A DNA stretch of 6,660 bases from a virus (lineage: Duplodnaviria > Heunggongvirae > Uroviricota > Caudoviricetes). The stretch lies in IMG/VR virus record IMGVR_UViG_2681813226_000005, one strand, 5' to 3'. The translations under genes and the position numbers were made by a program. The notes under the pieces were generated by a model that was given only the letters and a program-made list of their open reading frames with translations, did no database searches and was not told the DNA's origin. Shown here one piece after another: positions 5,395 to 6,070 of this stretch; the first letter of the stretch is position 1; each line of letters begins with the position of its first letter.

Positions 5395-5979
5395 ATGTTC
5401 GATACAGGGCGTTACAGGCGAAAAAAAATCCGGTACCGCGATGAAGTGACTGGAAAAATGATAACGCGGGATAATCCACCAATCCCGGGAAAGCAATCGC
5501 TGGCGAAGGTGACGTCAATTCCTCTGGTCAGTCCGGTTGAGTTTTCGACATCATCGTGGCGGCGGGCTGTTCTGTCTCTTGAAGAACATCATAAAGCCTG
5601 GTTGTTGTGGTGTTACAGCGGGAGTATTTGTTGGGAATATCAGATCGCGATAACACAGTGGGCGTGGAATGAATTTAATACTCAATCCGGTACCAGAAAA
5701 ATTGCAGGGAAAACGCAGGAACGCCTGAAAAAATTAATCTGGCTGGCGGCGCAGGCAGTAAAAGCAGAACTTTTTGGTGGGGAAGGTTATGAATACAAGG
5801 AGCTGGCATTACTGGTGGGAGTGACAACTAAAAACTGGTCCAAAACATTTACTCGTCACTGGGTTGCAATGAAACACATTTTTCACCGACTGGATAGTGA
5901 GGCTTTATTGTTTGTAATGAGAACGCGTTCAAAACAAAAGGCGGCATTTTCAAAGCAAAGTGTTGCAAAAGTAGATTGA
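5395..5979 (+). CDS. Candidate late-gene antiterminator (Q-position protein, 194 aa)
   Basis: ATG preceded by CAGGAG. It lies directly downstream of rusA and upstream of a promoter/terminator pair and the tRNA cluster, which is the canonical Q position. The function is assigned by position only, and no Zn-finger pattern is seen. The TTG start at 5347 in the ORF track is rejected. Confidence 0.6.
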   Translation: MFDTGRYRRKKIRYRDEVTGKMITRDNPPIPGKQSLAKVTSIPLVSPVEFSTSSWRRAVLSLEEHHKAWLLWCYSGSICWEYQIAITQWAWNEFNTQSGTRKIAGKTQERLKKLIWLAAQAVKAELFGGEGYEYKELALLVGVTTKNWSKTFTRHWVAMKHIFHRLDSEALLFVMRTRSKQKAAFSKQSVAKVD

Positions 5980-5991
5980 AAGGCATATATT
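5963..5991 (+). promoter_or_regulatory. Candidate late promoter (PR'-like)
   Basis: TTGCAA (5963-5968), 17-bp spacer, TATATT (5986-5991), overlapping the end of the Q-position gene. A strong terminator follows about 50-70 nt downstream, resembling the lambda PR'/tR' arrangement. Confidence 0.35.
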
Positions 5992-6044
5992 TCATGCAAA
6001 TCTGATATTTTGCCGATTTTGTACGTGATGGCAAAAGCAAACAA

Positions 6045-6070
6045 AACCCGCCCACAAGCGGGTTTTTTTG
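6045..6070 (+). terminator. Rho-independent terminator (tR'-like)
   Basis: AACCCGC-CCACAA-GCGGGTT hairpin followed by a run of seven T. Confidence 0.75.

Follow-up and report, generated by a model that had tools for sequence, protein, structure and literature searches.

Is the protein encoded at the position of the late antiterminator Q in this prophage segment a Q protein of an unusual kind? The window, by which we mean the whole stretch of 6,660 nucleotides analysed here, carries a 194-aa open reading frame without a visible zinc finger, and the promoter overlapping its 3′ end is followed by a terminator after a very short leader. The initial annotation had read these traits as possible signs of a Q family other than that of lambda, or of another mechanism. 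The best explanation overall is, in our judgement very probably, a late switch of the phage 82 type in which Q has been truncated by a deletion while the cis elements are intact, so that this copy would not antiterminate.

Genomic setting and family of the Q gene

The gene order in the window is hok/sok, a DUF968 (ydfU-like) gene, rusA, Q, the late promoter pR′, the terminator tR′ and tRNA genes. Q occupies the end of the nin region, directly upstream of the late promoter, and in phage 82 as well it directly follows the nin/rusA region. The window covers the nin/late-regulatory part of an E. coli lambdoid prophage, of the O157:H7 type, laid out on the phage 82 plan. A prophage that is 99.9% identical to it occurs in many O157:H7 genomes, in which 6,775 bases are spanned as against 6,660 in the window. 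O157:H7 strain TW14588 (L003) served as reference for the base-by-base comparison, and an alignment (A1) was also used.

The ORF runs from ATG 5395 to TGA 5977-5979 and, as had been described before, its product has exactly two cysteines (...LLWCYSGSICWEY...) and no CxxC pair. Against Pfam it matched PF06323 (Phage_antiter_Q) with 260.7 bits (cut-off 25; E = 1.4e-77). Besides PF06323 there was no Pfam match at E ≤ 0.1, and the lambda Q (PF03589) and Q21 (PF06530) profiles were not matched. PF06323 represents the Q82 family, and the Q82, lambda Q and Q21 families show no mutual sequence similarity (PMC9388147, PMC7171158). The proposal that the gene encodes a Q antiterminator of a family different from lambda's was therefore borne out, and the profile hit is to an antiterminator family rather than to an unrelated one; no NCBIfam model was found for the window Q. 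The intact relative in TW14588, of 229 aa, is 75.5% identical to phage 82 Q (X92588.1) over 229/229 residues and 72.5% identical to phage 434 Q (tblastn in both cases), and the window copy is the same as this relative over all the residues that it retains. Among the 120 homologues listed, most of the full-length ones are 229 aa long. Judged by its sequence, the window gene is a Q82-family late-gene antiterminator, present as a truncated allele rather than as an intact member.

The missing zinc finger, which had been regarded as an anomaly, is ordinary in this family. In fact, phage 82 Q itself contains zero cysteines, so the absence of a zinc finger is the family norm, and the two cysteines of the window allele fall at variable positions (protein alignment A2). 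Zinc has no part in the mechanism of the Q82 family. Lambda Q differs in this respect by its four-cysteine zinc ribbon (residues 114-152), and the window protein has neither such a ribbon nor any sequence similarity to lambda Q. What the two systems would share is the genomic slot and a common logic: the promoter constitutively gives a short pR′ RNA and holds a Q-binding element (QBE) in its spacer, the polymerase pauses close to the promoter in dependence on sigma70, and NusA stimulates antitermination.

An intact 194-aa protein of an unrecognised type, sitting in the Q slot and working unlike the known Q proteins, is exceedingly unlikely. It could draw on the lack of a zinc finger and on the lack of any solved structure with significant sequence or fold similarity, yet the PF06323 membership is strong, the intact form shares 75.5% of its residues with phage 82 Q, the ORF can be shown to be a 5′-truncated remnant, and the cis elements next to it are those of 82pR′. 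The profile match together with the alignment to intact relatives led us to reject this reading, and the family match and the 82pR′-type cis elements likewise count against the earlier suggestion that the protein acts by another mechanism. Earlier work has already described the Q82 family, the absence of a zinc finger from it and the architecture of 82pR′. For basic science the locus offers little: the biology is known, and what is private to this copy is a defective allele.

The C-terminal third of Q82-family proteins (residues ~157-229) occurs in at least two very different sequence types (for example ...KAELFGGEGYEYQELALLAGVTTKNWSKTF... and ...RGWVTGRESYQRQELARLCGIKPDNWSHNY...; alignment A3), carried on near-identical N-terminal two-thirds. 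In the alignment, the pattern resembles a modular exchange of the part that putatively binds DNA.

The deletion at the rusA-Q boundary and the lost N-terminus

Apart from a cluster of mismatches at 3572-3641, the window matches TW14588 up to 5341 and again from 5344; at 5342-5343 the two bases 'AA' replace 117 bp of the reference, a net change of -115 bp that was read base by base and in alignment A1. The junction carries this 2-base filler and no microhomology. To its right there are 0 mismatches in 1,317 bases, and all the cis elements are 100% identical to the reference. In the reference, rusA (119 aa) and Q (229 aa) overlap by 4 bases, and the replacement both truncates rusA and beheads Q, which was missed when the 194-aa ORF was taken as an intact gene.

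The truncated Holliday-junction resolvase gene, rusA′ (5049-5375, plus strand), still matches its family (PF05866 RusA, E = 9.4e-17). It keeps 98 native codons, after which the frame enters Q sequence, reads 10 foreign codons there out of frame (RFEWGNKRSA) and ends at TGA 5373-5375; RusA residues 99-119 are lost, and the protein falls short of the full length of ~120 aa. On the side of Q, the replacement removed the ribosome-binding site as well as the start codon and codons 1-18, and the lack of this start and these codons sets the window copy apart from phage 82 Q. The remnant consists of codons 19-229 and the stop (5344-5979, plus strand; PF06323 coverage and alignment A2). Directly before codon 19, the Q frame is closed by TAA 5341-5343, and the only in-frame starts left are TTG 5347 (Leu20) and ATG 5395 (Met36). 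Nothing Shine-Dalgarno-like lies upstream of TTG 5347. ATG 5395 is preceded, at 6 nt, by AGGAG (5384-5388, plus strand), which we read as a possible ribosome-binding site and whose bases are also present in intact relatives, and the rusA′ stop lies 20 nt upstream of the same ATG.

Of the 220 positions of the PF06323 profile, the 194-aa ORF covers 34-217 and a 210-aa ORF beginning at the TTG covers 17-217, as compared with 2-217 for intact Q and 1-217 for phage 82 Q. Neither ORF therefore encodes a complete protein of ~229 aa with the conserved helix at its N-terminus (profile positions 1-33). From the 117-bp replacement and the alignment to intact relatives it follows that the 194-aa ORF corresponds to residues 36-229 of a 229-aa protein. 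As aligned, it is a gene remnant that starts at the internal Met36, and residues 36-229 are probably the most that is made. Annotation at the level of ORFs will here call a 194-aa or 210-aa "Q" what is really a remnant.

The junction is so far peculiar to this record. Its 52-mer matched none of 5,426 complete E. coli genomes and none of 50,697 phage records, its 30-mer did not occur in exact form among the contigs of the GTDB, IMG/VR and JGI metagenome collections, and an exact-protein look-up of the chimeric RusA′ protein found no record. Records of 194-aa or 210-aa products were traced to the ends of contigs, to a contig masked with N and to alleles with a point mutation or a frameshift, and none of them has the window junction. 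Because the junction is absent from all the collections searched, the deletion allele is either private to its source or an error in the source record. That the deletion is an artefact of assembly, sequencing or editing, and that the real locus has an intact RusA and a 229-aa Q, is in our view improbable. Such an origin would fit with two flanks that are identical to the O157:H7 references, with a junction made of filler instead of microhomology, and with a junction and a truncated RusA′ that are otherwise without record; against this, the sequence itself bears no mark of an artefact and private deletions are common in resident lambdoid prophages. Moreover, natural N-terminal lesions of the same Q do exist.

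These other lesions leave the same 194-aa ORF. One is a nonsense allele, W31stop (G92A), seen in two runs (L007 and L008; Logan assemblies SRR8362690 and ERR7423578), and the other is a frameshift allele in one assembly (L006; GCA_000321145.1).

The lost segment belongs to the best-conserved parts of the protein. Across 30 relatives, residues 1-19 (MNxQYLQFVREQLIxATAD) stand out in this way, and M1, R10 and A16 are invariant over 51 sequences, down to 27% identity, with more invariant positions among closer relatives. We modelled an intact relative (P0001, 97% identical) by AlphaFold2 with the more diverse, 51-sequence alignment and obtained five concordant models (mean pLDDT 76.6, pTM 0.67). 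Helix 3-17 was predicted with pLDDT 81-85 and a helical domain at 82-226 with pLDDT 84-95; residues 22-44 and 62-75 scored below 50, the former stretch being predicted as disordered. A first run on a shallow alignment reached a mean pLDDT of 68, with its other four models at 39-48, and was set aside as unreliable.

Searched against the PDB by Foldseek, the models gave nothing at E ≤ 0.001. The top matches, although non-significant, were Q-type antiterminators, namely Pseudomonas AlpA 7xyb_G (E = 0.17, TM 0.37/0.46) and 7xya_G, and the model from the shallow alignment had a non-significant match to lambda Q 7ubn_Q (E = 0.22). At the level of sequence, neither AlpA nor phage 21 Q (PF06530) was matched. 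[quoted passage not shown] At the level of predicted models, the Foldseek matches agree with such a C-terminal helix-turn-helix and with a role of the N-terminus at the exit channel. If the two roles are divided in this way, an N-terminally truncated Q should bind DNA and should not antiterminate, and we infer that a product from Met36 or Leu20 may still bind DNA and would have lost antitermination. We found no experimental study of 82Q with a truncated N-terminus, and the loss of function is deduced from conservation and a predicted structure. Two caveats apply: residues 22-44 are predicted to be disordered, so part of the loss may be linker, and with a good Shine-Dalgarno sequence before Met36 and the rusA′ stop so close upstream, the truncated protein could well be made.

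The latter caveat leads to a reading in which the truncated Q still antiterminates. Translation would restart at Met36 by means of AGGAG 5384-5388, possibly coupled to the termination of rusA′ at 5375, and the 194-aa protein would load onto the paused polymerase. The spacing of the Shine-Dalgarno sequence and the neighbouring stop suit such a restart, as do the intact, well-predicted helical domain 82-226, the predicted disorder of residues 22-44 and the fact that, where other assemblies have lesions near the N-terminus, gene callers choose this 194-aa ORF too. We nonetheless hold it to be rather unlikely, since residues 1-35 contain many invariant or near-invariant positions of the family, helix 3-17 is predicted with confidence, a length of 229 aa is kept by most of the full-length homologues listed, and it is the N-terminal segment that has been proposed to act on the RNA exit channel (PMC9371919). 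On the evidence from sequence and models, a defective Q beside intact cis elements is most likely.

The PDB sequence search gave no solved structure of the Q82 family. Its sole match, the Ply endolysin 1xov at E = 0.007, lay over the low-confidence N-terminal region and was treated as chance. Intact relatives of the window Q remain of interest for structural work.

The late promoter, pause module and short leader

The promoter pR′ (5963-5991, plus strand) was found by a pattern scan and consists of a -35 TTGCAA (5963-5968) and a -10 TATATT (5986-5991). It overlaps the 3′ end of ORF 5395-5979 and, as in phage 82, its -35 lies inside the end of Q. The 17-bp spacer, AAGTAGATTGAAAGGCA (5969-5985, plus strand), is by its position the expected Q-binding element, the QBE being located between -35 and -10 (PMC4914094). 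A scan of 5000-6660 returned 5 sigma70-like sites against 2.0 +/- 1.5 in shuffles, which is not above chance, and the case for pR′ therefore rests on its conservation in relatives and on the register of 82pR′.

The register was taken from the positions stated in the text of PMC5001585 (Bird et al.), according to which 82pR′ has a -10-like element at +9 to +14 with an extended -10, then a discriminator rich in GC (GCC, +15-17) and an AT-rich stretch over +18-25; the polymerase pauses at +25/26, and +25 is U. With the start placed at A5998 (plus strand), 7 nt past the -10, the window shows a predicted sigma70-dependent pause module at 6003-6022 (plus strand): TG at +6/+7, the -10-like hexamer at 6006-6011 (+9 to +14), which reads TATTTT in the window, GCC at 6012-6014 (+15-17), the AT-rich GATTTTGT at +18 to +25 and a predicted pause at T6022 (+25). 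Every element of the window is in register with published 82pR′, and it is from this register that we infer both the start and the +25 pause. In lambda, the pause occurs at +16/17.

The module recurs in relatives as TTGCAA or TTGAAA, a 17-bp spacer beginning with AAAAGTnGATT, a -10 and then TGnTATnnT, and is kept after the Q of phages 434, CobraSix, Klebsiella phage 2 LV-2017 (Kp2LV) and phiES15. In Gifsy-1, the same promoter-pause module is found ~0.9 kb downstream of Q, a recurrence away from Q that marks it as a unit. At the register of the pause element, TGnTATnnT is present in 5 of the 6 Q82-family loci. A close parallel, phage 434 (OL657226.1), shares with the window a TTGCAA-17-TATAnT promoter over the end of Q (229 aa in phage 434), a TCATGCA start region, the pause element TGnTATnTT in register, an opposite-strand CII-box (TTGCN6TTGC) over the -35 and a short leader; it differs in having GTA in place of GCC at +15-17 and an intact Q.

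On the minus strand of the window, TTGCAACACTTTGC (5955-5968) fits the CII-box consensus TTGYN6TTGY and overlaps the -35 of pR′. By its sequence it is a possible antisense-Q promoter; at the equivalent place, phage 434 has an annotated CII site together with the -35 of paQ.

Close downstream of the pause module, as in the phage 82 system, lies tR′ (6043-6069, plus strand), an intrinsic terminator with the stem 6043-6051/6058-6066, the loop 6052-6057 and the U-run 6063-6069. Its GC core pairs CCCGC 6047-6051 with GCGGG 6058-6062, and A-U pairs lengthen the stem from 6043 to 6066. The 73-nt leader 5998-6070 folds with -22 kcal/mol (z = -3.07), and 0 of 200 shuffles folded as well. The terminator can also be read on the minus strand, and the pattern scanner reported the minus strand only, because the extension of the stem uses up the T-run. 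The promoter over the end of the ORF and the strong terminator behind it, as originally pointed out, do form a late pR′/tR′ pair.

With +1 at A5998 the leader is ~72 nt long, as against ~193 nt in lambda. Its shortness was correctly noticed, and the part of the claim that did not hold is that it signals another mechanism. A terminator-like hairpin follows within ~55-80 nt in 3 of the 4 other Q82-family phages inspected: in phage 434 the terminator is annotated 49-74 nt past the Q stop, which gives a leader of ~54 nt, and in phiES15 and CobraSix a hairpin plus T-run is separated from the pause element by a comparable distance. Short leaders are thus usual among the inspected loci of the Q82 type.

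A further hairpin is predicted by RNA folding in the first part of the leader (UUUUGCC...GGCAAAA; 6008-6036, plus strand), from +11 to +39 across the pause region. It precedes the terminator hairpin, and the aligned phage 434 sequence lacks a corresponding inverted repeat.

Expected behaviour of the locus and neighbouring features

For intact copies, the most likely mechanism can be taken from the literature on 82Q (PMC9388147, PMC7171158, PMC4914094). The 229-aa Q82 protein would bind the site in the spacer of the constitutive pR′ through its predicted C-terminal helix-turn-helix and engage the RNA polymerase held by sigma70 at the +25 pause on the TG-extended -10-like element. With NusA, the polymerase would then read through tR′ (~+72) and later terminators, and the readthrough would reach the tRNA genes, a TerB-family gene, a nanS-p-like esterase, the lysis genes and the structural genes.

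In the window copy, the longest possible product would begin at Leu20 (TTG) and the most plausible one at Met36, both without the conserved N-terminal helix. Its pR′ would give only the terminated RNA of ~72 nt, and this prophage copy is probably unable to switch on its own late genes, which would fire only if a Q with this specificity came from a co-resident prophage. Of the 5,426 complete E. coli genomes, 1,092 carry the Q+pR′ module, and the O157:H7 strains that head the ranked list have 2 copies; trans activation by a sister prophage is therefore plausible. For annotation and for calls of inducibility, this prophage copy should be treated as probably Q-defective and RusA-defective. Nonetheless, the intact cis module is also carried by other prophages in O157-type genomes, and the late genes could still be switched on in trans.

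Perhaps the Met36 product, with its C-terminal DNA-binding domain, sits on the QBE of pR′ and acts as a dominant-negative 'anti-Q'. We regard this as very unlikely; if it is true, the remnant would damp the late-gene induction of co-resident prophages that share the pR′ module.

At the left of the window, a complete type I toxin-antitoxin locus, hok/sok, occupies 3215-3539, with the Rfam sok match at 3215-3389 (114.9 bits). The Hok ORF of 51 aa (MKQQKAMLIALIV...) ends at 3539 and bears the annotation hokD in the reference strain. Immediately past hok, the 7 clustered mismatches at 3572, 3579, 3580, 3636, 3637, 3639 and 3641 are the only differences from TW14588 outside the deletion, the remaining 6.6 kb being identical. 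The DUF968 (ydfU-like) gene at 3987-5036, recognised in the Pfam search, encodes 349 aa, and its product shows a weak, sub-threshold match to an HNH-type nuclease (PF16784, E = 7.7e-5, 22.8 bits against a cut-off of 26.6) near its Cys/His-rich C-terminus.

Past tR′, three tRNA genes (CAT, Arg-TCG and Arg-TCT; 6190-6439, plus strand) form the first cargo of the late operon. The two arginine tRNAs, TCG and TCT, are rare-codon tRNAs. The first gene (6190-6265) is called Met (anticodon CAT) by ARAGORN and tRNA-Ile by RefSeq for the identical gene, a mismatch that is presumably the one expected for a tRNA of the ileX/ileZ type with a lysidine-modified CAT. A second sigma70-like site, TTGCAA-17-TATTAT (6152-6180), ends 10 nt before this gene and is kept in relatives; it could allow Q-independent expression of the tRNAs.
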